Assembly (NCBI GenBank): GCA_018818465.1
Contig: JAHIRU010000009.1
Coordinates: 1-43,847, forward strand
DNA from: Nanobdellota archaeon
Lineage (GTDB): Archaea > Aenigmatarchaeota > Aenigmatarchaeia > QMZP01
Direction of reading: 5' to 3'
DNA length: 43,847 nucleotides
Shown in pieces: positions 28,601 to 43,000 of this stretch. A model generated the notes under the pieces. The model was not told the DNA's origin, ran no database searches, and saw only the letters and a program-made list of their open reading frames with translations. A program made the position numbers and the translations under genes. Each line of letters begins with the position of its first letter. Positions within the stretch are counted from its first letter, which is position 1.

Positions 28601-31600
28601 TGTTGAACACTATTATATGAGTCCTGTTTCCGTATTCGCCTTCGCCCCAGTTTGATTCATAATAAGGCATGTTTTTTAGGTTGAAAGCATCATCTGTTCC
28701 GTCAAAATAAGTTCCATAGCCGTCTATCGAGGAAGCCAATGCAGGAAGTCCTACATATGTCGTGCTTCCAGAGCCTACATGCCTTGCATTGGTTGTTGAA
28801 TCCCATGAAAAGTATGAACCAGTTGGCGGAACTGCTGTAAAGTTCATGTGATAAACAAGACCGTAATTCTTTTTCCATGTGTTTTGTGCTGATGAAATAT
28901 CATACTGTGCACTTGCACCCGAGTAACCATAGTATGCGTAAATTGTTGTGTTTGCTGTGCTGTCAAGCAGGTCTAATTTTATCCAGAAAACCCCTGCAGG
29001 TATGCTTGAGTCATATAATTCCAGTTCTCCTGTTGTTATTTTTGTCTGACCGTCACTTTTTGTGAAGACAATGTCTGTGCCGTTAGCAAGTGCGTTTGTG
29101 AATACAGGGCTTCCTGGTGGGAAAGCAATCCTTATAGCATAATTACTCTCGTTTTTATATACATAAGTGCTGTCAATCTCTATTGGAACTCTATATGGCC
29201 ATCTCTGATCATACCAACTAGTCTGGCCAGCTATTATATATCTGTCTCCTACGCTTGGAGTGCCTGGTGGAGCGTTTAAATCCTTGTCCAATATAGGAAG
29301 CTTCCATGTACCGTTCAGTTGTGATGCTATTGCAGAACCAAGATATTCAAAAGCTCTTTCTGCATTTTCACTTAGCGTTGGGAAGAAATTTGCAGCATCT
29401 TTTAAGGTGACGTTTGATGCTGACAAGTTGCCTGTTATGTTGCCTAAAACAAGAAGGTTTTCATTAATTGTAACTGTATCGAATGTGGCTGTCACGCTTC
29501 TTACAATATCAGTCCATATCTTGCCAAACCATTCAGTTTGGTTGCCTAGCCAGTAGGTTTTGTTTGCGTTGACTGTTATGTTGCCTCTTAGGTCATCACC
29601 AGTTTCGTTGAGCCAATCGTCAGCAACGCCCGAATAAGATGATGATGAACCTGTTTCAACAGTTCCGTTAGACCATATCACAACGCCAGTTGGTACAGAG
29701 TAATTTCCATCAACATTGATTGTTCCGTTAGGGTACAAGTAAATATGTGCAGAAATGTTAAGTTCTCCTGTCATGTAGTCGCCAGTTGTGTTAACATAAC
29801 TATCTGTTGCACCGCCATAAATAGTATCGCTGTCAGTTGTTTCAACTGTGCCGTTAGACCATATGACAACAGTAGTCGGCACTGACAAATTACCGTCCAT
29901 TAAAATTGTTCCGTTTGGATACAGGTATATTTTATTGGATATATTGAGTTCTCCAGTCATTGTATCGCCTGTTTCATTGACCCAATCATCAGCTACGCCG
30001 CCGTAAACAGTATCGCTGTCAATTACTTCCACTGTGCCGTTAGACCAAATAACAAAGTCTGTACCAACTGTAAAGTTACCTGTTGTTTTTAGGTTAGCAG
30101 ATACATTCAGGTCACCAGTCATCACATCTCCTGATACATTAACGTAAGTATCACCAGTTGTGACAAATCCTGGTACACTGCTAATGTTGCCCCAAGCAAG
30201 TCTTGTCAAGAATCCGTTTATCCAGTTACCATTCATTGTAAGGTTACCTGTCATTGTGTCACCAGATTCATTTACCCAACTATCTGCTACGCCGCCGTAT
30301 ACGGTGTCACTGTCAATTACTTCCACAGTACCGTTAGACCAGATAACTACGCCAGTTGGGACAGACAAATTGCCATCCAAGTTGATTGTCCCGTTTGGAT
30401 ATAGGTATATTTTGCCTGATATATTGAGTTCACCTGTCATATAATCTCCGGTTTCGTTGACCCAACTGTCTGCTATGCCAGTGTAAATTGTATCATTATC
30501 AGCTACACAATGCAGTTCATCATTATCAAATCCTCTTACATAGTAACCCTCTGAACAATTAGCTGGGAAAGATGTTACATTACCCCAGGTTAAAGTTCCT
30601 ACAAAATAGTCAGCATATATATTTTTCCATTCTGCTGTAGGGCTACCTATGTCAAAAGTGCTTGTCAATTCTGGAAGAAATGTACCATTAAGATATTGGT
30701 TAGTTACAGTTGCATTTATGAAATCTCCTATTACTGTGAGATTGCCTTGTATTATTAAATCTCCAGTCATTGTGTCGCCTGTTATGTTGACCCAATCATC
30801 AGCTACGCCACCATAAATTGTGTCGCTATCCACAACTTCAACAGTACCATTGGACCAAATAACTACGCCAGTTGGGACAGACAAATTGCCATCCAAGTTG
30901 ATTGTCCCGTTTGGATATAGGTATATTTTGCCTGATATATTGAGTTCACCTGTCATATAATCTCCGGTTTCGTTAATCCAATCATCAGCTACTCCACCGT
31001 ATATTGTGTCACTATCAATTACTTCCACTGTACCGTTAGACCAGATAACAACATCACCGCCTGATGCAGTAACATTGCCAACTGTCATTGTATCGAATAT
31101 AGCATTGACTGCACGGATAGTGTCTGTCAGTATCTTGCCCCACCAAACACTGTCTGAACCAATCCAGTAAGTTGCATTAGCATCTAGGCTTGTCATGTTG
31201 TCGCCTGTAGTGTTAACGAATGTATCTGTTAGTCCACCGTAAATTGTGTCGCTGTCAATAACTTCTACTGTGCCGTTAGACCATATGACAACTCCGCTAG
31301 GAACAGAATAGTTGCCGTCAACGTTGATTGTTCCATTTGGATAAAGATAGATCTTCCCAGATATGTTAAGCTCGCCTGTCATGTAGTCTCCTGTTTCGTT
31401 AACCCAGTTATCTGCTACACCGCTATATGTTGTTCCTGCAGCTGTTTCAACTGTTCCGTTAGACCAGATGACAACATCACCGCTGAATACCGAGAAGTTA
31501 CCACCCATGCTGATTGAACCGTTAGCATAGAGCCATAATGCATCGCTGATGTTCAGTGAACCAGTCATTGTGTCGCCTGTTGTGTTGACCCAATTATCCG

Positions 31601-33170
31601 CTACGCCACCGTAAATAGTGTCATTATCAGCTACACAATGCAGTTCATCATTATCAAATCCTCTTACATAGTAACCCTCTGAACAATTGACTGGGAAGCT
31701 TGTTATATTACCCCATGTTAAAGCTCCTACAAAATAGTCAGCATATATATTTTTCCATTCTGCTGTAGGGCTACCTATGTCAAAAGTGCTTGTCAATTCT
31801 GGAAGAAATGTACCATTAAGATATTGGTTAGCTACAGTTGCATTTATGTAATCTCCTATTACTGTGAGATTGCCTTGTATTATTAAATCTCCTGTCATTG
31901 TGTCGCCTGTTATGTTAACCCAATCATCAGCTACGCCACCATATATTGTGTCACTATCCACTACCTCAACTGTGCCGTTAGACCATATAACTACGCCAGT
32001 TGGTACTCTGTAATCACCATCAACAAGGATTGTACCGTTCGGATACAAGTAAATCTTACTTGATATGTTCAACTCACCGGTCATGGTATCACCAGTTATA
32101 TTGACCCAACTATCAACTACGCCTCCATAAATTGTGTCACTATCAGTTGTTTCAATTGTGCCGTTGGACCAGATAACCACAGTTGTAGGTACAGATATGT
32201 TGCCGTCAACATTAATCGAACCGTTAGGGTATAGGTAAATATTGCCAGAAATATTCAATTCTCCAGTCATATAATCTCCGGTTTCATTGACCCAGTCATC
32301 AGCTATGCCACCATAAGAACTAGTAGCATCTGTTTCAACTGTTCCGTTACTCCATATCACAACTGCACCACCAAACACTGAGAAGTTGCCACCCATGCTG
32401 ATTGAACCGTTAGCATACAGCCACAACGCATCGGATATGTTTAATGAACCAGTCATTGTATCGCCTGTTGTGTTTATCCAGTTATCAGCTACACCACCAT
32501 AGAACTGAGTTGTTTCAATTGTGCCGTTGGACCAAATAACAGTGTCACCGCTAGGGATTGTAACATTGCCAACTCCTATGGAATCGAATAAGCCACTAAC
32601 ACCTCTGAAAATGTCGCTGTAAATTTTGCCGAACCACTCTGTTTCATTGCCTAGCCAGTATGTCTTGTTAGCATTGACAGTTAGGTTGCCTGCTAGATCA
32701 TCACCAGCGACTGCAACAAAATAACTGGAGTCTTTTCCGTCAAGCAAATCGGTGTTGTTCGTATAGAACGAATAAGCAGATGTTGTTACTCTTCTTCTTG
32801 GTGTCATTTCAGAATTGTCATTAACTTGTATGCTTAACCAATAATTTTGAGTAAAGTTTAAATCAATTGTTGTGTTGGTTCCCAAAACAATATGCCATAC
32901 ACCGTTTGTTACAGAAACGTTTAGATGGCCTTCATCCCAAATGTCTGTTCCCCCGGTTTCAGCTGTGTATATTCTGAATGTAAAATTATGTGTTCCGTTT
33001 ATTGTGTTACCTGATGTAGAATTAACAAGCCTGCCTTGCTGTGTTATGTAAGCTGGTACAGCAGATACAATTACAGGAACAATTAAGAATGACAAAAAAA
33101 CTGAAACGATAAAAATTCTTCTAAAAGAATCCTTTAAAGAATTCATGAATATTATATAGTTACCTAACAT
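25614..33170 (-). CDS. giant (2518 aa) repetitive secreted/surface protein with tail-fibre-like repeat arrays flanking a DUF2341/LamG-like core
   Basis: N-terminal anchor/signal IFIVSVFLSFLIVPVIVSA. 17 copies of VVIWSNGT(V/I)E and about 23 copies of (T/S)GDxMTGxLN. Central WPYRVPIEID...GTDIVFT...ELELYD...VFWIKL...TIYAYYGY (DUF2341-like) followed by a ConA/LamG-like block (about 29201-28130). Dense N-x-S/T sequons. An alternative ATG is at 33146. Confidence 0.9.
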   Translation of the reverse strand: MLGNYIIFMNSLKDSFRRIFIVSVFLSFLIVPVIVSAVPAYITQQGRLVNSTSGNTINGTHNFTFRIYTAETGGTDIWDEGHLNVSVTNGVWHIVLGTNTTIDLNFTQNYWLSIQVNDNSEMTPRRRVTTSAYSFYTNNTDLLDGKDSSYFVAVAGDDLAGNLTVNANKTYWLGNETEWFGKIYSDIFRGVSGLFDSIGVGNVTIPSGDTVIWSNGTIETTQFYGGVADNWINTTGDTMTGSLNISDALWLYANGSISMGGNFSVFGGAVVIWSNGTVETDATSSYGGIADDWVNETGDYMTGELNISGNIYLYPNGSINVDGNISVPTTVVIWSNGTIETTDSDTIYGGVVDSWVNITGDTMTGELNISSKIYLYPNGTILVDGDYRVPTGVVIWSNGTVEVVDSDTIYGGVADDWVNITGDTMTGDLIIQGNLTVIGDYINATVANQYLNGTFLPELTSTFDIGSPTAEWKNIYADYFVGALTWGNITSFPVNCSEGYYVRGFDNDELHCVADNDTIYGGVADNWVNTTGDTMTGSLNISDALWLYANGSISMGGNFSVFSGDVVIWSNGTVETAAGTTYSGVADNWVNETGDYMTGELNISGKIYLYPNGTINVDGNYSVPSGVVIWSNGTVEVIDSDTIYGGLTDTFVNTTGDNMTSLDANATYWIGSDSVWWGKILTDTIRAVNAIFDTMTVGNVTASGGDVVIWSNGTVEVIDSDTIYGGVADDWINETGDYMTGELNISGKIYLYPNGTINLDGNLSVPTGVVIWSNGTVEVVDSDTIYGGVADDWVNITGDTMTGDLIIQGNLTVIGDFINATVTNQYLNGTFLPELTSTFDIGSPTAEWKNIYADYFVGTLTWGNVTSFPANCSEGYYVRGFDNDELHCVADNDTIYTGIADSWVNETGDYMTGELNISGKIYLYPNGTINLDGNLSVPTGVVIWSNGTVEVIDSDTVYGGVADSWVNESGDTMTGNLTMNGNWINGFLTRLAWGNISSVPGFVTTGDTYVNVSGDVMTGDLNVSANLKTTGNFTVGTDFVIWSNGTVEVIDSDTVYGGVADDWVNETGDTMTGELNISNKIYLYPNGTILMDGNLSVPTTVVIWSNGTVETTDSDTIYGGATDSYVNTTGDYMTGELNISAHIYLYPNGTINVDGNYSVPTGVVIWSNGTVETGSSSSYSGVADDWLNETGDDLRGNITVNANKTYWLGNQTEWFGKIWTDIVRSVTATFDTVTINENLLVLGNITGNLSASNVTLKDAANFFPTLSENAERAFEYLGSAIASQLNGTWKLPILDKDLNAPPGTPSVGDRYIIAGQTSWYDQRWPYRVPIEIDSTYVYKNESNYAIRIAFPPGSPVFTNALANGTDIVFTKSDGQTKITTGELELYDSSIPAGVFWIKLDLLDSTANTTIYAYYGYSGASAQYDISSAQNTWKKNYGLVYHMNFTAVPPTGSYFSWDSTTNARHVGSGSTTYVGLPALASSIDGYGTYFDGTDDAFNLKNMPYYESNWGEGEYGNRTHIIVFNTSADITTRQFIASEGGTVNGWDCYIENSNITCGAWAISNGFSGKWFTIPIEANHDNYVVTTVFRCDDTDRNEICETSTNDQYNNFTMYLNGTLVGTAEHSDSLGTEVGMNAHSGDGGIGYTGKNDKLLLGGGKSSASTHFFGGTIREFQIIDIALDLNAHKTFETMFNDTSFMSISSEQSQSSGATGAWAGHENNITEYNSSGDWDMRSAQSGWTVFVKDESLIYAYDATVDAWIIASLIGSHRTLTDLNGCDPITNICWHFANQDDHDAATRYATNDQGGLMPAGYTTEIGLNTLYRITEWLTDEQFLNGTLEDGILNITLRHWLLVNATGDIMTGDLNVSANLKTTGNFTVGTDFVIWSNGTIETGATASYGGVADDWVNVTGDTMTGNLTMNGNWINGFLTRLAWGNISSVPGFITTGDTYVNASGDAMTGDLNITGGALLVNNGLNVSGDFFVNDTGGIQLILYKGCSLETVAGGNIVCGTDADTIYSGVADDWVNETGDYMTGELNISGKIYLYPNGSINVDGNYSVPTGVVIWSNGTVEVVDSDTIYGGLTDTFVNTTGDNMTSLDANKTYWIGSDSVWWGKILTDAIRAVNAIFDTMTVGNVTASGGDVVIWSNGTIETGSSSSYTGVADNWVNTTGDTMTGSLNISDVLWLYANGSISMGGNFSVFGGDVVIWSNGTIETGSSGGSYAGVVDTFVNTTGDNMTSLDANKTYWIGSDSVWWGKIYSDIFRGISGIFDNLEIVNNRFYAYSNGTINVDANYSVASGDVVIWSNGTVETGSSGGSYAGVADSWVNETGDTMTGNLTMSSDTRIRGGFTTIATYDRVSAADDDKLITQRSFADETLYPVIANQPDVPRDITVTVISGIDQTTGDVNISGLDADGRWIFEVITVDVTATTTAYNTSYAFSNVTKIVSNYIGGISPQYYVGIGNKLGLSNRPLSATGDVFKLTINSLPIAIPTVDAQKATVDFGSVNPPVGTTTYRFWYRYGR
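30345..30974. repeat. exact 114-nt direct repeat inside the giant gene
   Basis: 30345-30458 and 30861-30974 are identical (aactacgccagttgggacagacaaattgcc...ataatctccggtttcgtt), offset 516 nt = 172 codons. Confidence 0.9.
30493..31963. repeat. about 340-nt near-identical direct repeat inside the giant gene
   Basis: 30493-about 30835 and 31621-about 31963 differ at only a handful of positions, offset 1128 nt = 376 codons. A further about 193-nt pair (26759-26951 vs 31055-31247) is roughly 90% identical. Confidence 0.85.
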
Positions 33171-33238: not shown

Positions 33239-34948
33239 ATGAATGCAAATAAAAAATTACAAAGCGAAGTTTTGAAACTTTTACAAAAGCATGTTTCAAA
33301 AAAACAAGCAGAAGAACTTTTAGAAAAACCGCCAGAAGAAATTGGTGCAGATTTGGCTTTGCCTTGCTTCGCTTTTGCAAAAAAATACAGAAAAAACCCT
33401 GCAGAAATAGCAAAAGATATTGCATCAAAACTAAATCCTTCTGGTTTAATCAGAGAAGTAAGACCTGTTGGCCCTTATGTAAATTTTTATGCAGATTCTG
33501 AAAAAATCGCTTCCATGGTATTGAAGGATGTACTGAAAGAAAGGAACGCTTACGGGAAATCGAAAACAGGAAAAGGAAAGAGGTTGATGGTAGAATACGT
33601 ACAGACAAATCCCTACAAAGCCTTTCACATAGGACACGTCAGAAACATAGCACTTGGAGAATCTTTATGCCGTGTTTTAGAATCAACTGGAAATAAAATT
33701 ATAAGAGCGAATTACCAGGGCGATATAGGTCCGCATGTAGCAAAAGCTCTTTGGGGGTTGATAAACATCTACAATTCAAAACCACCTAAAGACGTCGACA
33801 AGGGTTTGTGGATAGGAGAAGTTTATAGAGAATCAAATGAAAAGGCATCTCTAAACCAAAAAGTTGCTGAGGAAATTGATGAAATAAATAAAAAACTTTA
33901 TGATGGTGACAAGAAATTATTACCACTTTGGAAAAAAGGAAAAAAATGGAGTCTTGATTATTTTGATAAAATTTACAAAGACTTTGGCGCAAACTTTGAC
34001 AGGCTTTATATGGAATCTGAGGTTGAAAAACCTGGCAGAAAGATAGTTAAAGAATTGCATAAAAAAGGCATAGCAGAAATAAGCGAAGGCGCTATGATAG
34101 TAGACCTGAAAAAATACAATTTACCAGTCTTTCTTGTTTTAAGAAGAGATGGCATAGCACTCTATTCAACAAAGGATCTAGCACTGGCTGAGATGCAGGA
34201 AAAGGAATACCATCCAGACAAAATAATACACGTTGTTGGATCTGAGCAGAAGCTTCATTTCCAGCAACTGATAAAAACTATTGGAATTTACAACAAAAAA
34301 CTTGCTGACAAGGAATACCATCTTTCCTATGAACTAGTTATTCTTCCTTCAGGCAAGATGAAATCTCGTGAAGGAAAAGTCATATTGTATGGCGATCTCA
34401 AAAGAAAAATGTACGCTCTTGCTTTGAAAGCTACGAAGGAAAAGAACCCTTCTTTGCCTGTTGCGCAGCACAAAAAAATAGCCGAGCAGGTTGCATTAGG
34501 TGCAATAAAATATAATATGATTATGCAATCGCCTGAAAAGGTTATAGTTTTTGATTGGAACCAAGCATTGGATTTCCAGGGAAACAGCGCACCATACGTT
34601 CAGTATACGCATGCAAGGGCTTGCTCTATTTTAAAAAAGGCTAAAGTAAAAACAATTAAAGATTTTGATCCATCCCTTTTAGTAGACAAAAAGGAAATAA
34701 AACTCATAAAAACGATATCAGAATTTCCACAGGTCGTTGAAAACGCCGCAAAAGATTACAGACCTCATTATATTGCCAGCTATGTTCACAATCTCGCATC
34801 CATATTTAATGAATTCTATCAAACTCTACCGGTTTTAAAAGCAGACAAGAATACAGCGGCAGCAAGGCTAGCTTTGGTAAAAGCAACACAAATAACATTG
34901 AAGAACGCTTTGCAATTGCTTGGCATTGAAGCTCCTGAAAAGATGTAG
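33239..34948 (+). CDS. argS: arginyl-tRNA synthetase
   Basis: NPYKAFHIGHVRN (HIGH), SGKMKSREGKV (KMSK-like), GAIKYNM, APYVQYTHARACSIL. Confidence 0.93.
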   Translation: MNANKKLQSEVLKLLQKHVSKKQAEELLEKPPEEIGADLALPCFAFAKKYRKNPAEIAKDIASKLNPSGLIREVRPVGPYVNFYADSEKIASMVLKDVLKERNAYGKSKTGKGKRLMVEYVQTNPYKAFHIGHVRNIALGESLCRVLESTGNKIIRANYQGDIGPHVAKALWGLINIYNSKPPKDVDKGLWIGEVYRESNEKASLNQKVAEEIDEINKKLYDGDKKLLPLWKKGKKWSLDYFDKIYKDFGANFDRLYMESEVEKPGRKIVKELHKKGIAEISEGAMIVDLKKYNLPVFLVLRRDGIALYSTKDLALAEMQEKEYHPDKIIHVVGSEQKLHFQQLIKTIGIYNKKLADKEYHLSYELVILPSGKMKSREGKVILYGDLKRKMYALALKATKEKNPSLPVAQHKKIAEQVALGAIKYNMIMQSPEKVIVFDWNQALDFQGNSAPYVQYTHARACSILKKAKVKTIKDFDPSLLVDKKEIKLIKTISEFPQVVENAAKDYRPHYIASYVHNLASIFNEFYQTLPVLKADKNTAAARLALVKATQITLKNALQLLGIEAPEKM

Positions 34949-35251: not shown

Positions 35252-35569
35252 GTTAATATTTAACTAATAGGGATATAAATAACTTTTTATCCCTTATAAT
35301 TGACAATTATAAAGGAACCGTCCGAATAAGTGCGATAACTTGTTGGACGGTTTAAGTAAACTCTAGTGAGTTTTTAACTCAACCATTGTTGAGCAAGTAA
35401 AAGAAACAATATGTATGGAGCAGGGTGTGCTCCAATATAAGAAAGAAGTCTTTTACCTCCCGAAGTTTATTTAATTCAATATTAATCCCCATTCCTTGAT
35501 GAGGCATATGCTGATAAGACCTTGAAATAACTTTTAAATGTTTGCCACTTTGTTCACTCTTAATGCAGT

Positions 35570-35613
35570 TAATAGAACCCGACACTTGATAAACTAAGCT
35601 AATAGAACCCGAC
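35570..35613. repeat. two copies of a 14-nt direct repeat, 30-nt period
   Basis: TAATAGAACCCGAC at 35570-35583 and 35600-35613. Confidence 0.8.
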
Positions 35614-36129
35614 GTTTACTATGTAAATCATCGGACAGGTACCTCCTGAAAATAGGAATTAGTAAATTTATTCACATAAGAAGTACATAAATATTAATTG
35701 TTTTTAGAAAAACCAGCAGCCCTAGTCACAGACAGTTTCATAACTAAATGTACAATCGCCTAGCTAGGCGTAAGAATACTGCAAGCAGATTCCCTATGTT
35801 ATTAGTTTTTGTTAGAAATGTCTATTTATTGACCAGGGCGCTGGAGTACCAATCAAAAACAGACATCATTGATTGATGTCCGAGCGAGGCCAAAAAAACC
35901 ATTTCAATTTCCATTCCTAACAAATAGCTCTGTTTGTTAAGAAAAGAGATCAGAAACGGTAACTGATGTAATTTCCATATATATTGAGCATAAAATTCAA
36001 AATTAAAAAAAACCACCACCTTGACTTTTTATTTTAAGGAGGTGTTTAAAAAATCTCAAACATGTTTCAGTAAATTATATATCTCTACATATCTCATTTG
36101 CTTGTCAAGGTGGTGTCAATCCGAATCTG

Positions 36130-36187
36130 CAAAAAATAAGTAGCCGTTTCATCCAGAATGGAAAGCTTGTTTTTTCGAAACGGCTAC
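36130..36187 (-). terminator. strong hairpin plus T-tract about 350 nt downstream of the ATPase stop
   Basis: GTAGCCGTTTC (36140-36150) / GAAACGGCTAC (36177-36187) form a perfect 11-bp stem. On the minus strand it is followed by TTATTTTTTG. Confidence 0.6.
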
Positions 36188-36538
36188 ACAAAAGTGTTAC
36201 TCGATCCTCAGGTCGGTCGGGTAAATTGAATAAAACTGATGTGCCCCTGTGTGGAGCATTACGTTGTGAACGATGACGAATTGTTTCGCCGAGTGACTGT
36301 GCCTTAGACAGGCAATACACAACTGCATGATAAAAAACAAATACTACTTTATCAAAAGTTGTCTTTGTTGACCTTTCTCGATCATTTTAATTTCCATAGC
36401 TTATGCTAATGGAAATAATTTCGATATAGATATAGAATAGCATGAAACTAACCCATTGAAACGGGTAACATAACTAAACATGATTATTATTTGTTTGATC
36501 AATTATTTAAAAGTTGTTTGTTTTTAAGAATTTTGGAT

Positions 36539-38890
36539 TTATTTCACGTCAAACTCTACCTTATCAAATTTGCAGTTCTCTTGGAAGTCTCCGATTGTTG
36601 CTACAAAAATTGCCAGACCTGGCTTTCTCAAAGAACGTTTTGCAGCCTGTTGAATTATTATGTTTTTTAATGTTTCATTTGCACAGACAAAGTGCTTGTT
36701 TTCTTTTAATTTTTCATATATTTGATTTCTGTCTGTATAATCAATAAGAGCTACTGGCAGTATCTCATCATCTTTGTTTATCTCTAAGATATCTATCTTG
36801 CGAGTAGCCTTCCAACCTACAAGAGAAAACAACTCAAGCAATTCTGTTATATCCATCTCTACACTGCCTTCATATCTTTGAAATTTGCCGTGAAAAACCT
36901 TTTCTCCCCTATCTGTTAAAAAGTAATAATGAAGTTTGTTCTTGCCGCTTTTTCCTCTAGCTGTTTGAACAAGACCCATGTCTAACAGTGCACCAATCTT
37001 ATCATTGAAAACAGTACCGGATACTCTAATAGCTTTGTATATCTGTGAAGCAAATACTCCATGGCCATTACCAACAACGTCTATAATCTTCCAACCATGA
37101 TCATCTAATTTTTCTATAGGAACGTTTATTACAGTTTCTCCATCTTCCCAATGCTGGTTCTCCTTTTTAGGAGATTTCTTTTCAATTAGTTTCCTTTCGA
37201 ATTCCTTTATTTCCTGAACAACATCATTTTCTTCTATTGGTTCAACAATTTCTTCTTTTATCGGTTTGACATCCTCTTTTTCCTTGATGCCGTTCAAATC
37301 TTCCATCATTTTTTGAGCTGTTTTTTGGAATTCTTTTGCAAGATCCTTTAATTTAGAATCATTAATTGTCTTCTTTGCAGGTTCTGCGTTCTCTATTGCT
37401 TCGTTTTTTCCAACAATATTATCTTCTTTTTCTTCAACATTATCTGCAGTTTCTTCTGCTGATTCATCTGCACTCTTTTCCTGAGGTTCGACCATTTTAT
37501 CATATGTCTTCATGAATTCTGAAACCTTTTCATCTGAAATAACTGTTTTATCTATTTTTACTTCATCGAAACCCATTAAGAATGGTCTCGGGAATTCGAA
37601 GTTTCTGCACAACATAAAACCATGCCCTACAGGAATTCTTCTAAGGTAAACACCCTCTTCCTCATAGTCGAGCCCTAGCATGTGTGATGCATCCAAGATA
37701 TCAGAAGAACCCTTTGTATCAAGACCCAAATTCATGTATATGTGCGTAGATGTGTTACCCAATGCCGGATAAGAAACCAATGATGGGTGCTGATCTGTAT
37801 AAATTATACCAAGTCCCAGTTCTCTGATTTCTCTGAATATAAGATCCATCACAGTTTCTGAACCCATTTTGTTAGCCTTATCACGGTTCAGAACATGGTG
37901 CGCTTCCTCTAAAATTATTACTCCTCTTAATTTCTCTCTCTGATCACTAACCAAAAGCCAGTCTCTTAACCACTGCATTATAATTTCTATGAAAAATGTC
38001 TTGTCGCTGGTGTCTAAAGCATCTAGTTCTAAAATTGTAATTCTACCTTTCCTCAAAAAATCAGAAGGTTTTGTACCAACATCGCAATTGAATACATCTC
38101 CAATTTCCTTGAAACACAAAGATTCCAATGGTCTAATAGCTGTTGATACCCAGTTCTTTTCTCTCATCGGTAGCTTAAGATCTCCGTATTCCTCTATCCA
38201 TCCTTTAATGTCTCTTAATCTTGGTTTTTCTTTTTCATCAAATACACCATCAAAAGACTTAAGAATTATGTGTCTACCACCACCCATTAACCAATAAGCG
38301 TGATCGAACACAGCTGCGAATTCCTTCATCCATTGTGTCATTGAAATGCCGTCAGGCGGTCTTAGTGGGTTGAATTTTAAAGGAGACGCGTTTCTACCAA
38401 CAGTATAAATATCAATTTTATCCTTCAGTTTTGTTTTTAACAGATTTCTATAATTTCTTTTTGAGAAATCAAATATCAAAATCGGAATATCCTCTTTTGC
38501 TAATTCAAATACCATTTTATTCGCAAGATTTGTTTTACCATAACCTGAAGAACCGAATATACCCATGTGCATTAAAAGCCTTTCTTTTTCAAACTTGAAT
38601 GGATACATCTTTTTCTTGCCATAAAGAACACTGCCAAGATTTAACTGGCCTTTAGCAACTGCTTCTTTTTCAGGCGGTTCCATAAGAATACTATCTCTAA
38701 GCTCGTTTTCAGTGAAAACAGCTGCCTTAGCTACATCAATAAGCCCGAAGATTCTTTCTCTTGTATCTTCATCCCCAAGCAAGTATGCTCTGCTGAGTCT
38801 TTCGGCTGTACTTCTACCTAGGATTGGAATAAGTTTCTTAACTTCGCTAGTAAATATTTTTTCTTTTGTTTCTATCATGTTAATCACCAT
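36539..38890 (-). CDS. HerA/FtsK-superfamily (DUF87-like) ATPase fused to a low-complexity linker, a winged helix and an unassigned about 110-aa C-terminal domain
   Basis: Walker A GIFGSSGYGKT (aa 111-121 of the track ORF), Walker B GVIILEEAHH (aa 324-333), IYTDQHPS, LRRIPVGHGFM. An acidic/Lys linker covers aa about 465-585. wHTH GVFASQIYKAIRVSGTVFNDKIGALLDMGLVQ. The ATG at 38890 overlaps the upstream TGA (TGATG). Confidence 0.8.
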   Translation of the reverse strand: MVINMIETKEKIFTSEVKKLIPILGRSTAERLSRAYLLGDEDTRERIFGLIDVAKAAVFTENELRDSILMEPPEKEAVAKGQLNLGSVLYGKKKMYPFKFEKERLLMHMGIFGSSGYGKTNLANKMVFELAKEDIPILIFDFSKRNYRNLLKTKLKDKIDIYTVGRNASPLKFNPLRPPDGISMTQWMKEFAAVFDHAYWLMGGGRHIILKSFDGVFDEKEKPRLRDIKGWIEEYGDLKLPMREKNWVSTAIRPLESLCFKEIGDVFNCDVGTKPSDFLRKGRITILELDALDTSDKTFFIEIIMQWLRDWLLVSDQREKLRGVIILEEAHHVLNRDKANKMGSETVMDLIFREIRELGLGIIYTDQHPSLVSYPALGNTSTHIYMNLGLDTKGSSDILDASHMLGLDYEEEGVYLRRIPVGHGFMLCRNFEFPRPFLMGFDEVKIDKTVISDEKVSEFMKTYDKMVEPQEKSADESAEETADNVEEKEDNIVGKNEAIENAEPAKKTINDSKLKDLAKEFQKTAQKMMEDLNGIKEKEDVKPIKEEIVEPIEENDVVQEIKEFERKLIEKKSPKKENQHWEDGETVINVPIEKLDDHGWKIIDVVGNGHGVFASQIYKAIRVSGTVFNDKIGALLDMGLVQTARGKSGKNKLHYYFLTDRGEKVFHGKFQRYEGSVEMDITELLELFSLVGWKATRKIDILEINKDDEILPVALIDYTDRNQIYEKLKENKHFVCANETLKNIIIQQAAKRSLRKPGLAIFVATIGDFQENCKFDKVEFDVK

Positions 38891-39108
38891 CAATCTTCAA
38901 ACTCGGAGTCATCTCTAGGATTTCCTAACCCGGCTTCCGGAAAAGCATCTAATAAATCGTTTTCAGAACTCCGTCTATAATGATATATTTTAAGATCATT
39001 ACCTACTATCAAATATTTTCCTATATACCTTTCATTTTCATCAACAACAAAACCGTTTTCGTATGGAATTTGTTTTGTTGATTCGTTTGGTTTTAAACTT
39101 AGTTTCAT
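38890..39108 (-). CDS. hypothetical 72-aa protein with acidic C-terminus (operon gene 3)
   Basis: ORF placed with a 1-nt gap after the upstream stop, and its stop overlaps the ATPase start. Confidence 0.55.
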   Translation of the reverse strand: MKLSLKPNESTKQIPYENGFVVDENERYIGKYLIVGNDLKIYHYRRSSENDLLDAFPEAGLGNPRDDSEFED

Positions 39109-39109
39109 A

Positions 39110-39691
39110 CTAATCTTCCTTCCCAGTATTTGATTTTATGTCTTTGAAAAGATCTGCAAGTTTTTGCTCATTTTGGAACTGTTCAAGCAATTCTTTCAGT
39201 TCTGTTCTCAGATCAAACATATCTCTCCACAATTGAATAACTTCTTTCCTTTTTTCCTTTCTTAAAACAGAAATATCCAGTTTTATGCTTCTTTGTTCGT
39301 CAATATTCATTGCTTTTCCAAGCATGCCATTTCTTTCTTTAATATCTTCGTTTATCTCGCTAATCATGTCATTATGAATATCAGTACGATCTTTCATCGT
39401 ATTTTGAGTTTCCTCAACCCTTTCTTTCAAAAATTTAACTCTATCAAAAAGACTGCCAACTATTTGTGGGCTGATTATTCTAAGCTTCTCTATGTCTTCG
39501 TCCTCAAGACGAGGCATTGCTTGAACCCTTTTGACTATAACCTTTTCAACTCTTTCACGAGTTTCTTTGTCAATGTCATCCCAAGATGTGGCTGTATCCA
39601 AGAATTCATGTTTACGACCATCAAACTCAGTTTTATAGATGTCGTCTATCTCTTCTGCATCAAAGTAGCGTCTTTTTTCAATTTTAGCCAT
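39110..39691 (-). CDS. hypothetical 193-aa coiled-coil protein (operon gene 2)
   Basis: The ATG at 39691 is preceded by AGGTGA (the track start 39700 is GTG). The C-terminal 110 aa are heptad-like K/E/L/I-rich, with no TM segment. Confidence 0.6.
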   Translation of the reverse strand: MAKIEKRRYFDAEEIDDIYKTEFDGRKHEFLDTATSWDDIDKETRERVEKVIVKRVQAMPRLEDEDIEKLRIISPQIVGSLFDRVKFLKERVEETQNTMKDRTDIHNDMISEINEDIKERNGMLGKAMNIDEQRSIKLDISVLRKEKRKEVIQLWRDMFDLRTELKELLEQFQNEQKLADLFKDIKSNTGKED

Positions 39692-39700
39692 AACAATCAC

Positions 39701-39883
39701 CTAAGCTCTAAACTCCACTATTTCTTTGTTTTTATAAACTTTTTCGGTGTTAGGATCAAACACAAAAACTACATTTGTTGGATAATTGAAAATATCACCT
39801 ACAGGGTCACCTAATTTAATTTCTTTTCTTTCTTCTGAACCGTATGTTTCTCCAATAGGATTGCTGTAAATTGTTTCTTTCAT
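39701..39883 (-). CDS. hypothetical 60-aa protein (operon gene 1)
   Basis: The ATG at 39883 is preceded by GGAGAG at 5-nt spacing. The track TTG start at 39952 lies only 5 nt after a TTTATATA box, so it is probably upstream of the transcription start. Confidence 0.45.
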   Translation of the reverse strand: MKETIYSNPIGETYGSEERKEIKLGDPVGDIFNYPTNVVFVFDPNTEKVYKNKEIVEFRA

Positions 39884-39956
39884 GTTATCTCTCCAGACAT
39901 TTTGTCTTGCGTTGCTGTATTTAAACAGTTTGTTACTATTTACTAGTGACAAAGGG

Positions 39957-40100
39957 TATATAAAGCTTTCGGTCCCTCACGAGGGGATTATAACGAAAGA
40001 CAGCGTATTTCGTGTTCATATAGAGGTATTTTGTCTCACGCAAGACATCCATATTTTACGCGAGACAATGCTTTCTTGACGGGACAATATATAAGCTTTC
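39957..40100 (-). promoter_or_regulatory. duplicated TATA-like boxes flanking a repeat-rich segment upstream of the ATPase operon
   Basis: Minus-strand GAAAGCTTTATATA (39970..39957) and GAAAGCTTATATAT (40100..40087) lie 130 nt apart. Between them are TGTCTCGCG / TGTCTTGCG / TGTCTTTCG repeats, the palindrome TGTCTTGCGTGAGACA, and nested hairpins CTTTCG..CGAAAG and CCCTC..GAGGG. Confidence 0.45.
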
Positions 40101-40149
40101 TCTTTGTCAAAATTTGCTGTATGTATCCCTTTAAGGAGATAGAGAGAAC

Positions 40150-40172
40150 AAAAAAACGGGATTAGGATTCCC
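40150..40172 (-). terminator. weak hairpin plus T7 tract after the small membrane ORF
   Basis: Minus strand GGGAATCCTAATCCC G TTTTTTT lies immediately after the TGA at 40179-40181. The stem is only 4 bp. Confidence 0.35.
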
Positions 40173-40178
40173 ATTTAT

Positions 40179-40346
40179 TCATGTTATCTCCTTCCAATAT
40201 TTACCATCTGAAATATGAAGAATTGGTATTATTACAATATAACATATTATTCCTCCTATCACGAGAATTATAAACCAAATAATGACAATTAAAGAAAAAT
40301 GAAGGATACCAAAAAAACGTTCTATCATTTCTTTTATTGTTTTCAT
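40179..40346 (-). CDS. unannotated 55-aa membrane protein (below the ORF-track cutoff)
   Basis: AAGGAG lies 8 nt upstream of the ATG. Encodes MKTIKEMIERFFGILHFSLIVIIWFIILVIGGIICYIVIIPILHISDGKYWKEIT with a long, probably double-pass hydrophobic core, followed by a T7 tract. Confidence 0.55.
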   Translation of the reverse strand: MKTIKEMIERFFGILHFSLIVIIWFIILVIGGIICYIVIIPILHISDGKYWKEIT

Positions 40347-40634
40347 TACTCTTTCTCCTTAATCCAGAGTCTGGCCCTGTAAAAAAATTGATGAGGTGAA
40401 ATAAAAAATTAAGGCTATTATAGCCAACATAAATTCTAAAAAATTCTTCATTGTATTCTCCGTTTCCTATGCCTAGTGTTGAAAATAGGCAAGTTTTGAT
40501 AAGTAATAACACTCCCCGAAACCTTTTACCGCATGGAGAATAGCTATACTATATAATTAGTCTATAAATATTTAACGCTCTCTTTCTGCTTTGATGAACA
40601 TAAACCTTATAAGGACACATGTCCATATATAAAT

Positions 40635-40850
40635 ATGGGAAAAACAAAGGCACCAAATAAGAAAATTGTGAAAAAAATAAAGAAAATTTTAGCTGATAAT
40701 CCACAAGGGCTTTGGATAAGAGAAATTGCTAGAAGAAGTGGTATTAGTAAATCATGCATCCACGTATATTTGAATGAATATATGGACAATGATGTAAAAG
40801 AGATTGTCTCTATTCCGGGTCTAGTTAAATTGTATAAATTAAAAAAATGA
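40635..40850 (+). CDS. small winged-helix/HTH DNA-binding protein
   Basis: 71 aa: Lys-rich N-terminus, then LWIREIARRSGISKSCIHVYLNEYM (HTH). 4 nt upstream of the LAGLIDADG gene. Confidence 0.6.
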   Translation: MGKTKAPNKKIVKKIKKILADNPQGLWIREIARRSGISKSCIHVYLNEYMDNDVKEIVSIPGLVKLYKLKK

Positions 40851-40854
40851 TATT

Positions 40855-41910
40855 ATGGATAAAAAATCTATTAAATCAATAGTAACTTTTGATGAATTAG
40901 TTGATAAATTTCCCAGAATTAAACAGAAAAGTAAAAACTTGGCTGAAAAGCTTTTACCTTTATATCCGTCTCCAGAACTAGCTCAAATAGTAGCAGCTTT
41001 AATGACAGATGGGCATATTGATTGGTATACATCTGATGGTAGACCAAGAACAAGAAAAATAATTCTATATTCAAGCAATAAAGATGAATGTGATTGGTTT
41101 ATTAAAACATGTAAAGATCTTTTCGGTTTGGAAGGTAAAACCATACCATATAAACCAAAATATGGTCAATATAAACTTCAACCCTACAAAGCTGTTATAA
41201 ATAGTGCTGTAATTGCTAGAATCTTAATTTTGGCTGGTGTACCTGCAGGAGATAAAACAAAAATAGGTTATATTGTTCCAGAATGGGTTATAAGTGGTGA
41301 TAATAAAATAAAAAAGAGTTTTTTAATGACATTATTTACTTTTGATGGCTGTAAACCATATAAAAGAAGAACTACATGGACTATAGAATATTCTACGGTA
41401 ACTTCTCAAAAGACTTTGAATAGAACACTCTTGTTTTTCAAACAATTAAAACAATTATTGAAAGAGTTTCAAATCTATATGAATCATATACCAACTGAAC
41501 ATTTGAGAAACAATAAAAAAATAATGGTCATATCATCAATTTCTTCAAGAGAATCAATTGTAAATTTCTATAGATTTTTAGGTTATGATAATCCAGAAAA
41601 ACAAAAAAGACTTGAAGAAGCTGTAAAATATATATCTGATATAGTAAGATTGGAAAATAAAGATACTTCTAAAATTTTAGAAAAATTCAAAAATATACAC
41701 GGAACTGATAAAAAAACAATATATTTTATAAACAAAACATTAAACACTAATTACACTTATAGGCAATTTGAACATTTTAGAAGATGTGAAATAGAAGTTC
41801 CACTTAAATTGTTTGTTTTAGCAAGTAAAAACATAGATATGAAACCAAAACTTCTGGAATGGATGGATTTTTTAGTGAAAAAATTCAACGTTCCCTCTTC
41901 CCAAAAATAA
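40855..41910 (+). CDS. free-standing double-motif LAGLIDADG-family protein
   Basis: Motif 1 is LAQIVAALMTDGHIDW and motif 2 is KKSFLMTLFTFDGCKPY, about 105 aa apart, each retaining the Asp. An extra helical C-terminal region of about 120 aa follows. Confidence 0.6.
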   Translation: MDKKSIKSIVTFDELVDKFPRIKQKSKNLAEKLLPLYPSPELAQIVAALMTDGHIDWYTSDGRPRTRKIILYSSNKDECDWFIKTCKDLFGLEGKTIPYKPKYGQYKLQPYKAVINSAVIARILILAGVPAGDKTKIGYIVPEWVISGDNKIKKSFLMTLFTFDGCKPYKRRTTWTIEYSTVTSQKTLNRTLLFFKQLKQLLKEFQIYMNHIPTEHLRNNKKIMVISSISSRESIVNFYRFLGYDNPEKQKRLEEAVKYISDIVRLENKDTSKILEKFKNIHGTDKKTIYFINKTLNTNYTYRQFEHFRRCEIEVPLKLFVLASKNIDMKPKLLEWMDFLVKKFNVPSSQK

Positions 41911-43000
41911 ATTCTTCCACCATATCTTTTGCTACATTATCAGGGTATTGTATCGGTGGGTGTTTCATCATGAATGCTGATATGCTTATTAACCTTCCAC
42001 CAATTCCTCTATCTAATGCCAATTTTGTACATCTTATTGTATCAATCGCGCATCCTGCACTATTTGGCGAGTCTTCTACACTCAACTTTAAATCTATTTT
42101 AACTGGTGTTCCTCCGAATTTTTTTCCTTCCATTCTAATAAAACAAATCTTATTATCTTTCTGCCATGGAACATAATCGCTTGGTCCGATATGAATATTA
42201 TCTGGATGAAGTGGTGTTGGCAACTGTGATTGAACAGAAGATGTTTTGCTTATCTTCTTGCTCTTCAATCTTTGTCTTTCTATCATATTTAGGAAATCAC
42301 AATTTCCGCCAATATTTAATTGATATGTTTTATCAAGCTCCACACCCCTGTCAATGAAAAGTTTTGTAAGAGTTCTATGAACAATAGTCGCCCCTATTTG
42401 AGCCTTATAATCATCGCCAGTAATAGGCAGTCCCTTATCTTCAAACTTTTTTGCCCATGCATCATCTGAAGCAATGAATACAGGCATGCAATTGACAAAA
42501 GCGCAGCCAGCATCCAGTGCGCATTGAGCATAATATCTTACAGCTTCTTCAGAGCCTACAGGCAAGTAATTGACAAGAATTTCTGCGCCTGATTTTTTCA
42601 ATTCACTGGTTATATCAACAGGATTTTTATCCGACACAACAAAGGTCTGGTGTTCAGGGAATTCCTTCATATGATCAGCAACACCATCAAGAACAGGCGC
42701 CATTTTAACTTCTACGCCCATGTTAGGAACATTTTTATGAAATATTATTGTATTGTTAGGCTTCTCGAATATAGCTTCAGAAAGATCCTTTCCAACCTTG
42801 CGTGCATCAACATCAAATGCAGCCACAGGCTTTATATGCGATATTTTATATCCGCCTATAACATTATGCATTAATCCAGGAACAACTTCATCATTAGAAT
42901 TAACATCCTTGTAATAAAATAATCCTTGAATAAGCGAACTGCAACAATTTCCTACGCCTGCTATAGCAATTTTTATTTCTTTTTCCAAATTAAACACCAT
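41885..43000 (-). CDS. myo-inositol-1-phosphate synthase (archaeal short type)
   Basis: IKIAIAGVGNCCSSLIQGLFYYK, GDDYKAQIGATIVHRTL, NIGGNCDFLN, SKKISKTSSV. Confidence 0.88.
   Translation of the reverse strand: MVFNLEKEIKIAIAGVGNCCSSLIQGLFYYKDVNSNDEVVPGLMHNVIGGYKISHIKPVAAFDVDARKVGKDLSEAIFEKPNNTIIFHKNVPNMGVEVKMAPVLDGVADHMKEFPEHQTFVVSDKNPVDITSELKKSGAEILVNYLPVGSEEAVRYYAQCALDAGCAFVNCMPVFIASDDAWAKKFEDKGLPITGDDYKAQIGATIVHRTLTKLFIDRGVELDKTYQLNIGGNCDFLNMIERQRLKSKKISKTSSVQSQLPTPLHPDNIHIGPSDYVPWQKDNKICFIRMEGKKFGGTPVKIDLKLSVEDSPNSAGCAIDTIRCTKLALDRGIGGRLISISAFMMKHPPIQYPDNVAKDMVEEFIFGKRER

Follow-up and report, generated by a model that had tools for sequence, protein, structure and literature searches.

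Conserved gene pair encoding a HerA/FtsK-superfamily ATPase and a predicted helical-hairpin protein in Aenigmatarchaeota and related DPANN archaea

The closest described systems to the locus reported here are the HerA ATPase of HerA-NurA, the HerA-type motors of several defence systems, FtsK, SpoIIIE and Streptomyces TraB (an ATPase with a C-terminal winged helix-turn-helix [wHTH]), and the ATPases of the VirD4/TraG/TrwB, VirB4 and CedD groups. Aenigmatarchaeota and related DPANN archaea are uncultivated and genome-reduced, and their chromosome biology is almost unknown; to our knowledge, no FtsK-like function has been described for these ultra-small symbionts. We analyzed a locus encoding such an ATPase in a Nanobdellota archaeon placed by the GTDB in the Aenigmatarchaeota (assembly GCA_018818465.1, contig JAHIRU010000009.1). 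The whole stretch of 43,847 nucleotides (nt) is called the window below, and the candidate genes all lie on its minus strand, within 36539-39952. They encode an ATPase fused to a wHTH, a protein of 193 amino acids (aa), called the partner, and two small open reading frames (ORFs) of 60 and 72 aa. A preliminary description of the sequence had presented the four ORFs as a translationally coupled operon in which the ATPase has three soluble partners, and had read its context as fitting a defence system or a mobile-element module. The four ORFs are present with the coordinates first read.

The conserved gene pair and its relatives on mobile elements

The real unit consists of two genes, not four, because only the 193-aa gene and the ATPase gene recur together. 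Of 83 loci, 80 had a partner homologue in tblastn searches, each time upstream of the ATPase and in the same orientation. The partner stop overlaps the start of the ATPase ORF in 45 of 72 loci, often by 4 nt, and is no more than 30 nt away in 14 more (59/72). The two genes are a conserved, translationally coupled pair that codes for a protein of ~190 aa and an ATPase of ~670-780 aa. Neither the 60-aa nor the 72-aa ORF had a homologue in 84 related loci (tblastn, and phmmer at permissive thresholds), and both are annotated only in metagenome-assembled genomes (MAGs) of the same species, the 60-aa ORF as a singleton cluster. On the contig with an 81%-identical ATPase (L084), the partner stop lies 1 nt before the ATPase start and there is no 72-aa ORF, while a second relative (L001) has unrelated genes of 184 and 228 aa at the position of the 60-aa ORF. 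None of the three small window proteins matched Pfam, NCBIfam, PHROGs, or PADLOC. The 60- and 72-aa ORFs, to judge from these searches, are lineage-specific and lie outside the conserved module, and they were ruled out as conserved partners. The proposed operon of an ATPase with three partners thus does not stand: the expected adjacency holds for the 193-aa protein and fails for the 72-aa protein (0 loci), and the lack of conservation of the small ORFs is one of the two grounds that the preliminary description itself had named against its proposal.

The partner/ATPase junction carries an insert of >100 nt in 11 of 72 loci, namely the window and L006, L012, L036, L039, L048, L056, L060, L068, L080, and L083. 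The inserted genes (69 to 247 aa; the insert of L060 is 3.2 kb) are unrelated to one another and to the 72-aa ORF of the window, except that L056 and L083 have a pair of Cys-rich small proteins in common, and a conserved third component was ruled out for this reason. The junction behaves as an insertion slot.

The partner has 34 homologues in the databases, none of them named and none with a Pfam domain, and a conserved core that reads IGxLFDRVxFLxERI...LDISVLRKEKRxE..xFWRD..ELRxEL (alignment A3). Its AlphaFold model has a disordered N terminus of ca. 70 aa, followed by an antiparallel two-helix hairpin (residues 75-126 and 130-192) with a predicted local distance difference test (pLDDT) score of >90. 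Foldseek returned generic hairpins (CT398/HP0958, YscO, Skp, and Vipp1; E ≥ 0.08) and no specific fold information. A kinship with FliJ, YscO, or Vipp1 was dropped because these are generic coiled coils.

The ATPase is a member of the HerA/FtsK superfamily fused to a winged helix, as first described, which is borne out by the Pfam family DUF87 (PF01935; 58.6 bits against a cut-off of 23.2, aa 85-303), by Foldseek, and by profile matches. The motifs reported earlier (GSSGYGKT as Walker A, VIILEEAH as Walker B, and LRRIPVGHGFM) are found in the translation and are invariant in the family alignment (A2), as are FREIRELG (R353, R356) and DQHPS (Q367). The structural models rest on shallow alignments, that of the ATPase on 14 sequences with a mean pLDDT of 67.7. 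Searches with its core retrieved DndH-C (2e-11), SsoHerA (4e-11), VirB4 (5e-9), TrwB (1e-5), and also TdpA and Sir2-HerA, with no subfamily standing out; against 4d2i, 7es4, 4ag5, and 1gki the probability was 1.00 and the target-normalised template-modelling score was 0.48 to 0.64. In sequence searches of the PDB, whether a single sequence or the family profile served as query, the matches were limited to remote ones with HerA and wHTH structures (HerA profile, E 2e-7); among viral models, those to the ATPase were confined to HerA-like proteins of phages and small wHTH proteins of the MarR type.

Around this core, a predicted three-helix N-terminal domain has invariant columns in A2 between E16 and A56 and sits where canonical HerA has its HAS barrel. 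It is kept both in the clade of the window and in a sister family described below, whose profile matches begin at position ~10. The low-complexity linker noted earlier is confirmed as a 131-aa stretch with 45% E/D/K that is modelled as disordered; it is expanded in the lineage of the window and is 20 to 40 aa long in most homologues (A2). The wHTH matched LrpA (1i1g, 5.5e-5) and MarR/HxlR/PadR-type structures in family-profile searches, a PHROG of transcriptional regulators (2e-4), and viral wHTH models (Foldseek template-modelling scores of 0.74 to 0.83), and homologues of the ATPase bear precomputed HTH_27/MarR_2/HTH_24 matches. The winged helix and the further C-terminal domain of the preliminary description are both modelled (pLDDT around 85-94), the latter spanning ca. 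100 aa. Across all four proteins the highest 19-residue Kyte-Doolittle mean is 0.94, so they have no transmembrane segments, as had been stated.

More than 780 homologues of the ATPase exist in the databases, with 47 to 81% identity over 660 to 790 aa among the matches listed; almost none has a name other than "DUF87 domain-containing protein". A scan of the GTDB with one genome per species found a relative in 86 species and returned 80 loci; the ATPases of this clade are 50 to 69% identical across the 86 species. By taxon label, 31 of the 80 loci are Aenigmatarchaeota, a few are Nanoarchaeota, Woesearchaeota, Nanohalarchaeota, and Nanobdellati, and the rest are mostly "uncultured archaeon"; such labels on MAG contigs may include mis-binning. 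Short contigs with genes of this clade (those of L051, L066, and L079 and of protein P0022) carry the labels Bathyarchaeota, Methanosarcinales, candidate division TA06 bacterium, and Thorarchaeota. Because of their 53 to 66% identity to Aenigmatarchaeota proteins, they are probably mis-binned DPANN contigs and not transfers. One locus of the clade lies on a complete chromosome, CP070801.1, of 1.05 Mb, where it is present in a single copy.

The pair of the window is embedded in a backbone of an inositol-1-phosphate synthase gene (Ino1) on one side and of a Zn-ribbon gene followed by the arginyl-tRNA synthetase gene (ArgRS) on the other. The same backbone is found in L001 and in L002, with ATPase identities of 69 and 53%, respectively; L002 also has L7Ae/S28e/L24e and a PadR gene nearby, and L007, too, has homologues of L7Ae and PadR. 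When the ORFs of 82 loci were clustered, no cluster other than ATPase and partner was present in more than 11 loci. The recurring neighbours were the Zn-ribbon gene (11 to 16 loci), Ino1 (8), and ArgRS (5), so that a large conserved neighbourhood beyond the pair was rejected. Sequences of Cdc6 (24), integrase (25), and p119 (13), the last a 119-aa protein and all three typical of the sister family, used as blastp queries had zero matches among the 863 ORFs of the 82 clade loci, and no integrase or Cdc6 was found within 5 kb of the pair. IMG/VR held no member of the clade, and PLSDB and INPHARED held only relatives of <25% identity, in the ATPase domain alone. No tRNA lies beside the locus (the only one of the window is at 1429-1501); attachment-site repeats were not searched for. 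The shared synteny, together with the lack of integrase, Cdc6, virus, and plasmid matches, places the pair in the chromosomal backbone. By these comparisons of sequence and synteny, it has been inherited vertically on the chromosome, mainly in Aenigmatarchaeota and neighbouring DPANN lineages, and very strong purifying selection acts on it. The accessory island of the preliminary description fits the variable DNA around the pair (a 351-aa ORF and a helix-turn-helix [HTH] ORF upstream and a 1.3-kb stretch free of ORFs downstream) and does not fit the pair itself.

At E ≤ 1e-30, an exhaustive profile search yielded 411 clusters (formed at 50% identity). About a dozen top representatives, some of them fragments, scored above ca. 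500 bits, and next came proteins of equal length with scores down at 375-217 bits. The resulting sister family comprises at least 1,937 proteins and >460 metagenome loci; labels are few, one member being labelled Lokiarchaeia. Its alignment (A7) shows no variation in the equivalents of Walker A and B, the REIRE arginines, and DQxPS. A partner homologue lies directly upstream on the same strand in 54 of 84 sister loci, mostly with a 4-nt overlap, and the partner hidden Markov model of the window clade matched 52 of these 54 upstream genes (hhalign, 91% and 85%); "DUF8104 (weak)" labels precomputed for sister partners were not reproduced in our Pfam search. Pfam confirmed an Orc1/Cdc6 gene in 24 of 84 sister loci (in 14 cases downstream, in the same orientation) and a tyrosine integrase in 23, and individual loci also carry AbiE, ThiF, or long runs of small ORFs. 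The mobile-element idea of the preliminary description is therefore right for the sister family, though not for the copy in the window.

An intermediate protein, P0165, the nearest to the window clade among the nuclease-intact relatives, scores 590 bits with the window-clade profile and falls at the base of the monophyletic window clade in a rough midpoint-rooted neighbour-joining tree. It is encoded on a 12.9-kb contig with Cdc6, an integrase, and, uniquely, a TrbC/type IV secretion system (T4SS) pilin gene (L172:464-883, minus strand; L173), and its partner is encoded elsewhere on the same contig. The pilin hints that some carrier elements may be conjugative or Ced/Ted-like; a link to conjugation was dropped, since no pilin homologue was present in any other locus. 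Among the sister members P0216, P0266, P0296, and P0195, some have an N-terminal extension of ca. 300 aa that is not the partner, in one case with a weak KilA-N match, and one is fused at its C terminus to a DHH/DHHA1 (RecJ-like) module.

The C-terminal domain sets the two groups apart. In the sister family, H..E..D is invariant and an ExE-TGKS motif is near-invariant. The profile of the domain matched Cas4 (4r5q, E 0.0028) exactly at D...ExK and, more weakly, AF1548, OkrAI, and Hjc, and the weak Pfam matches of single members (Hjc, EcoO109I, and CoiA_nuc) fell there too; these matches identify a PD-(D/E)xK nuclease domain. P0165 keeps VDVL...IEIETG. In the window clade (alignment A6), G22, W23, N73, Q77, and F105 are nearly invariant and no acidic residue is conserved. 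Alignment of A6 with the sister domain (A5) by hhalign was colinear, with 72.5% probability and an E value of 3e-5, and the secondary-structure order of the window-clade model agrees with a PD-(D/E)xK core, to which the domain is linked via its sister-family homology. On this profile evidence, the C-terminal domain of the window clade is homologous to the sister PD-(D/E)xK domain and has lost the catalytic residues. The window clade descends from, or shares an ancestor with, the sister family.

Proposed function and alternatives

The best reading of these data, to which we give roughly an even chance, is a domesticated DNA motor of mobile-element origin that is nuclease-dead and would act as a DNA-targeted translocase with an obligate coiled-coil partner. 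By analogy with described motors, the ATPase would form a ring, probably a hexamer, in which ATP hydrolysis drives the pumping of double-stranded DNA or movement along it. Held on its linker, the winged helix would provide recognition of DNA or of specific sites, as in FtsK-gamma or TraB, the dead nuclease domain may be kept as a DNA-binding or assembly surface, and the hairpin partner may serve as an adaptor or regulator in stoichiometric association with the motor. In this scenario, the host would have kept the motor and dropped the cutting activity, which would suit a chromosome-handling role (segregation, resolution, partition, or DNA uptake) better than restriction. We hold the identity and the evolutionary picture of the pair with high confidence; for the mechanistic picture of ring motor, targeting wHTH, and adaptor partner our belief is evenly balanced, and for any specific cellular role, be it segregation/resolution, DNA import, or regulation, confidence is low. 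A bolder version, in which a DPANN lineage domesticated the motor of an Orc1/Cdc6-integrase element, silenced its nuclease while keeping motor, DNA-recognition domain, and coiled-coil adaptor, and now uses the complex as an essential chromosome-handling machine (for example, for segregation/resolution or as a DNA-import motor), is a tentative conjecture that we judge rather unlikely.

Several points weigh against the reading as a domesticated translocase. Ring formation, DNA translocation, and partner binding rest on analogy with HerA, FtsK, and TrwB, and an ATPase bearing a wHTH could equally be a regulator and not a translocase. The fold of the partner resembles generic coiled-coil hairpins alone, none of them significantly, and the model, built from a shallow alignment, has low confidence over aa 371-422, where the motor is most conserved. 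The homology of the C-terminal domain rests on the 72.5% hhalign probability plus colinear full-length profile matches, and the direction from mobile element to chromosome on the catalytic loss plus a midpoint-rooted distance tree without an outgroup.

On our reading, the pair makes up neither a four-gene system nor any defence system already known, and it is not mobile at present. Defence against viruses or plasmids by a HerA-type motor with an effector, as in HerA-Sir2, HerA-DUF4297, DndFGH, TdpAB, and MADS, would agree with the nearest structural and profile neighbours of the motor (DndH-C, TdpA, Sir2-HerA, and mad8), with the Mrr-like arrangement of the sister family, where a predicted intact PD-(D/E)xK domain follows the wHTH, and with the variable small genes that gather at the partner/ATPase junction. 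However, the PADLOC matches are weak and confined to the ATPase domain, the partner matches nothing, no Sir2, DUF4297, or similar effector gene adjoins the pair, and the nuclease motif is lost in the window clade. Defence islands are patchy and fast-evolving, whereas the pair shows conservation at housekeeping level, a single copy on the complete chromosome, and stable synteny with ArgRS, Ino1, and ribosomal protein genes; we consider this explanation improbable. The view that the window copy belongs to an active or recently integrated mobile element, as a module for DNA processing, partition, or transfer, is the one we find hardest to credit. It draws on the sister members found beside Orc1/Cdc6, tyrosine integrases, AbiE, and runs of small ORFs, on the single locus with a TrbC/T4SS pilin, and on the variable DNA on both sides of the window pair. 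Against it stand the absence of integrase, Cdc6, and the 119-aa element gene from the 82 clade loci, flanking backbone common to relatives at 53 to 69% ATPase identity, the lack of an adjoining tRNA (repeats of attachment sites not having been searched for), and the absence of matches in IMG/VR and of close relatives in PLSDB and INPHARED. The preliminary placement of this copy in a defence or mobile-element module is not supported, given its housekeeping synteny, its very high conservation over a lineage at phylum level, and the absence of integrase and Cdc6 within 5 kb across the 82 loci.

Two further explanations keep the pair on the chromosome. It could be an ATP-dependent regulator of transcription or chromatin, in which the wHTH would target promoters or specific sites and the ATPase would remodel or evict DNA-bound proteins with no long-range pumping; the MarR/Lrp-type wHTH, the naming of several homologues as transcriptional regulators by JGI, the lack of a membrane anchor and of predicted nuclease activity, and the high conservation of a chromosomal gene are all in keeping with this. 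The motor nevertheless belongs to the HerA/VirB4/TrwB ring-translocase clade, and its relatives on elements pair it with a nuclease beside replication initiators, so that DNA processing fits better than gene regulation, and a purely regulatory role appears unlikely. A motor for DNA uptake or transfer, analogous to Ced/Ted or to a conjugative coupling protein and serving the episymbiotic lifestyle of DPANN archaea, is suggested by weak profile likeness to CedD, P-loop_TraG, and TrwB_AAD_bind, by the P0165 element, where a nuclease-intact relative accompanies a pilin gene, and by the ATPase with C-terminal wHTH that recalls Streptomyces TraB. Yet these scores are far below the cut-offs (52.5 versus 600 for CedD; 16.7 versus 25.8 for TraG), neither protein of the pair has a transmembrane segment, and no conserved pilin, VirB4, or membrane-channel gene is nearby, which leaves this possibility improbable.

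Being conserved at this level across lineages, and nameless and undescribed in the databases and literature searched, the pair stands out as a strong candidate for an uncharacterised machine at the core of these cells. Its link to the sister family also delimits a core module of archaeal integrative elements that had gone unannotated, and the exaptation by the host of a mobile-element motor with loss of its nuclease, as we read it, would be a clear example of this process.

Layout of the locus and neighbouring DNA

The coordinates of the features of the locus are collected in Table 1. The 60-aa ORF and the partner gene are separated by 9 nt and the partner gene and the 72-aa ORF by 1 nt, in line with the tight packing first reported. 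The -1 junction (TGATG) reported between the 72-aa ORF and the ATPase gene holds provided that the latter starts at ATG 38890. Homologues of the ATPase start where the window has a second in-frame ATG, at 38878 (MIETKEK...; L001, MIDIKERL; alignment A2), which is preceded by GGTGA, the same motif found ahead of the ATG of the partner. The agreement with homologue starts and the upstream GGTGA make ATG 38878 the probable true start, with an 11-nt spacer after the 72-aa stop in place of the overlap. An alternative 83-aa form of the 60-aa ORF would begin at TTG 39952.

Upstream of the gene string lies a B recognition element (BRE)/TATA-like sequence that resembles the archaeal promoter consensus and is a candidate promoter. 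Its position is compatible with a single transcript and counts against the 83-aa form with a TTG start. Directly upstream of it (39972-39990, minus strand) is an inverted repeat, CCCCTCGTGAGGG, which may terminate the upstream unit or act as an operator.

Table 1. Coordinates of the gene pair, of the domains and motifs of the ATPase, and of adjacent features in the window
Feature	Position (nt)	Strand	Remarks
Inositol-1-phosphate synthase (Ino1)	41885-43000		Flanks the pair
BRE/TATA-like motif AAAGCTTTATATA	39958-39971	minus	Candidate promoter; ca. 75 nt upstream of the ATG of the 60-aa ORF; read from sequence
60-aa orphan ORF	39701-39883	minus	ATG start; upstream of the partner; coding status unproven
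Partner gene, 193 aa	39110-39691	minus	Translation
72-aa orphan ORF	38890-39108	minus	Between partner and ATPase
ATPase-wHTH gene with putatively degenerate nuclease domain	36539-38890	minus	783 aa from ATG 38890; 779 aa from ATG 38878
Three-helix N-terminal domain, aa 1-66	38693-38890	minus	Model helices 3-24, 26-38, 41-60
P-loop ATPase core, aa ~83-441	37568-38644	minus	Motifs invariant in A2; Foldseek matches
Walker A GSSGYGKT, aa 113-120	38531-38554	minus	Invariant in A2
All-alpha insertion in core, aa 184-262			Between Walker A and B; model
Walker B ILEEAHH, E328-H332	37895-37909	minus	Invariant in A2
Acidic/lysine-rich disordered linker, aa ~442-590	37121-37567	minus	pLDDT <50
MarR/Lrp-type wHTH, aa ~597-670	36881-37102	minus	Profile and model
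C-terminal alpha-beta-beta-beta-alpha-beta domain, aa ~682-780	36551-36847	minus	Model, pLDDT 85-94
Zn-ribbon gene, 100 aa	34949-35251	minus	Other side of the pair
ArgRS	33239-34948		Beside the Zn-ribbon gene

The segment between Ino1 and the 60-aa ORF (39953-41910) differs from that of L001 and holds the 351-aa ORF and a 71-aa HTH protein with sub-threshold matches to HTH_IclR/HTH_24. The earlier assignment of the 351-aa ORF to the LAGLIDADG family was not supported, as it had no Pfam match at E ≤ 0.01. On the other side, 16 of 83 loci encode, on one strand or the other, a Zn-ribbon and HTH protein (CPYC...CKKC) at a distance of 0.3 to 3 kb downstream of the ATPase gene; it is IS1 InsA-like in appearance, has no significant Pfam match, and its gene has a conserved TATA-like upstream sequence in the window and in L084. 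The protein could regulate the pair or could be no more than a neighbour in synteny.

The ORF-free stretch downstream of the ATPase (35252-36538, in minus-strand orientation) is mostly unconserved with respect to its closest relative (L084:2476-3748), apart from near-identical islands at ca. 36394-36498, 36240-36306, and 36008-36130. The second is GC-rich, with three small hairpins (z -2.9), and the third has a 12-bp terminal stem, GACACCACCTTGAC...GTCAAGGTGGTG, that encloses ca. 85 nt and is followed by a U-run (z -2.2); these islands are candidates for small RNAs or regulatory DNA. The stretch had no Rfam match, no copy in other loci, and no blastn conservation past the closest relative, and a long non-coding stretch conserved throughout the clade was ruled out, as it is not general across loci. 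Beyond ArgRS, a 2518-aa ORF (25614-33170, minus strand) is followed by a 542-aa ORF (23982-25610, minus strand) with weak NPCBM_assoc/CARDB-type matches; both probably belong to the large surface proteins that typify DPANN genomes. The syntenic gene of L001 encodes a BNR/Sortilin-repeat protein.

Comparison with known systems

Searches of Pfam, NCBIfam, PADLOC, PHROGs, PLSDB, INPHARED, and IMG/VR matched no described architecture, in agreement with the preliminary description, and no description of the family was found in the literature searched. Not encountered in these libraries or this literature were the ATPase-wHTH-PD-(D/E)xK architecture, the dedicated hairpin partner, and the split between element-borne copies with a predicted intact nuclease domain and chromosomal copies with a dead one. 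Two negative statements made earlier also held: NurA, Mre11, and Rad50 are absent from the recurring genes of the 82 loci, and membrane partners are found neither among the four proteins nor among the conserved neighbours.

With HerA of HerA-NurA (S. solfataricus, 4d2i) the ATPase has in common the P-loop core, DUF87, Walker A and B, the arginines, and the Q of DQxPS. In place of the HAS beta-barrel, however, the P-loop is preceded in the model by three helices (aa 3-60) and then a single beta-hairpin (pLDDT 50-75, hence moderate confidence), no NurA, Mre11, or Rad50 gene lies near the pair, and the wHTH and PD-(D/E)xK-fold domains are additional, as is a hairpin partner of its own; because it lacks both HAS barrel and NurA, this is not canonical HerA. 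Its motor has its best structural and PADLOC neighbours in DndH-C, TdpA, the defence HerA proteins (Sir2-HerA and DUF4297-HerA), and mad8 of MADS, but this likeness has low scores and lies within the ATPase domain, and the pair differs from these systems in its lack of effector or partner genes of theirs, its housekeeping context, and its nuclease-dead state. The highest PADLOC score for the window was that of mad8 (45.5 bits, ATPase domain only), with nothing for the other three proteins, and the sister family gave the same pattern, with ATPase-domain matches only, at most 66 bits overall, and none for the partner.

The coupling and transfer ATPases VirD4/TraG/TrwB, VirB4, and CedD have in common with the window protein the all-alpha insertion between Walker A and B, weak matches to P-loop_TraG, TrwB_AAD_bind, and CedD, and the Foldseek matches to VirB4 and TrwB. 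The scores are nonetheless below the cut-offs (CedD [NF053655], 52.5 against 600; HerA_antiphage, 30.7 against 800, and plasmid_TraB, 12.1 against 800, being the other NCBIfam scores; P-loop_TraG, 16.7 against 25.8, and a second Pfam coupling-protein model, 16.2 against 20.5), transmembrane segments are lacking, and there are no conserved T4SS or Ced neighbours.

The partner, for its part, recalls the coiled-coil partners of ring ATPases of the FliJ/YscO/CT398 type, by analogy, in being an antiparallel hairpin of similar length whose gene adjoins that of a putative ring ATPase; it has no sequence relationship with them, and the likeness may be that of any helical hairpin. The C-terminal domain has, in its model, an alpha-beta-beta-beta-alpha-beta order that fits PD-(D/E)xK nucleases (Cas4, Hjc, and AF1548-type) and would be related to them through the sister family, which aligns to D...ExK of Cas4, while the window clade is without the conserved D/E/E(K) and the sister motif is ExE-TGK instead of ExK.

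FtsK, SpoIIIE, and Streptomyces TraB differ from the window protein in that it lacks an FtsK_SpoIIIE Pfam domain match (none at E ≤ 1) and an N-terminal membrane anchor, which sets it apart from this group, and has an extra domain after the wHTH. They belong to the same superfamily, and the likeness of wHTH and gamma domain is one of layout: a motor, a flexible linker, and a winged helix on its C-terminal side that could direct the motor to particular DNA sequences.

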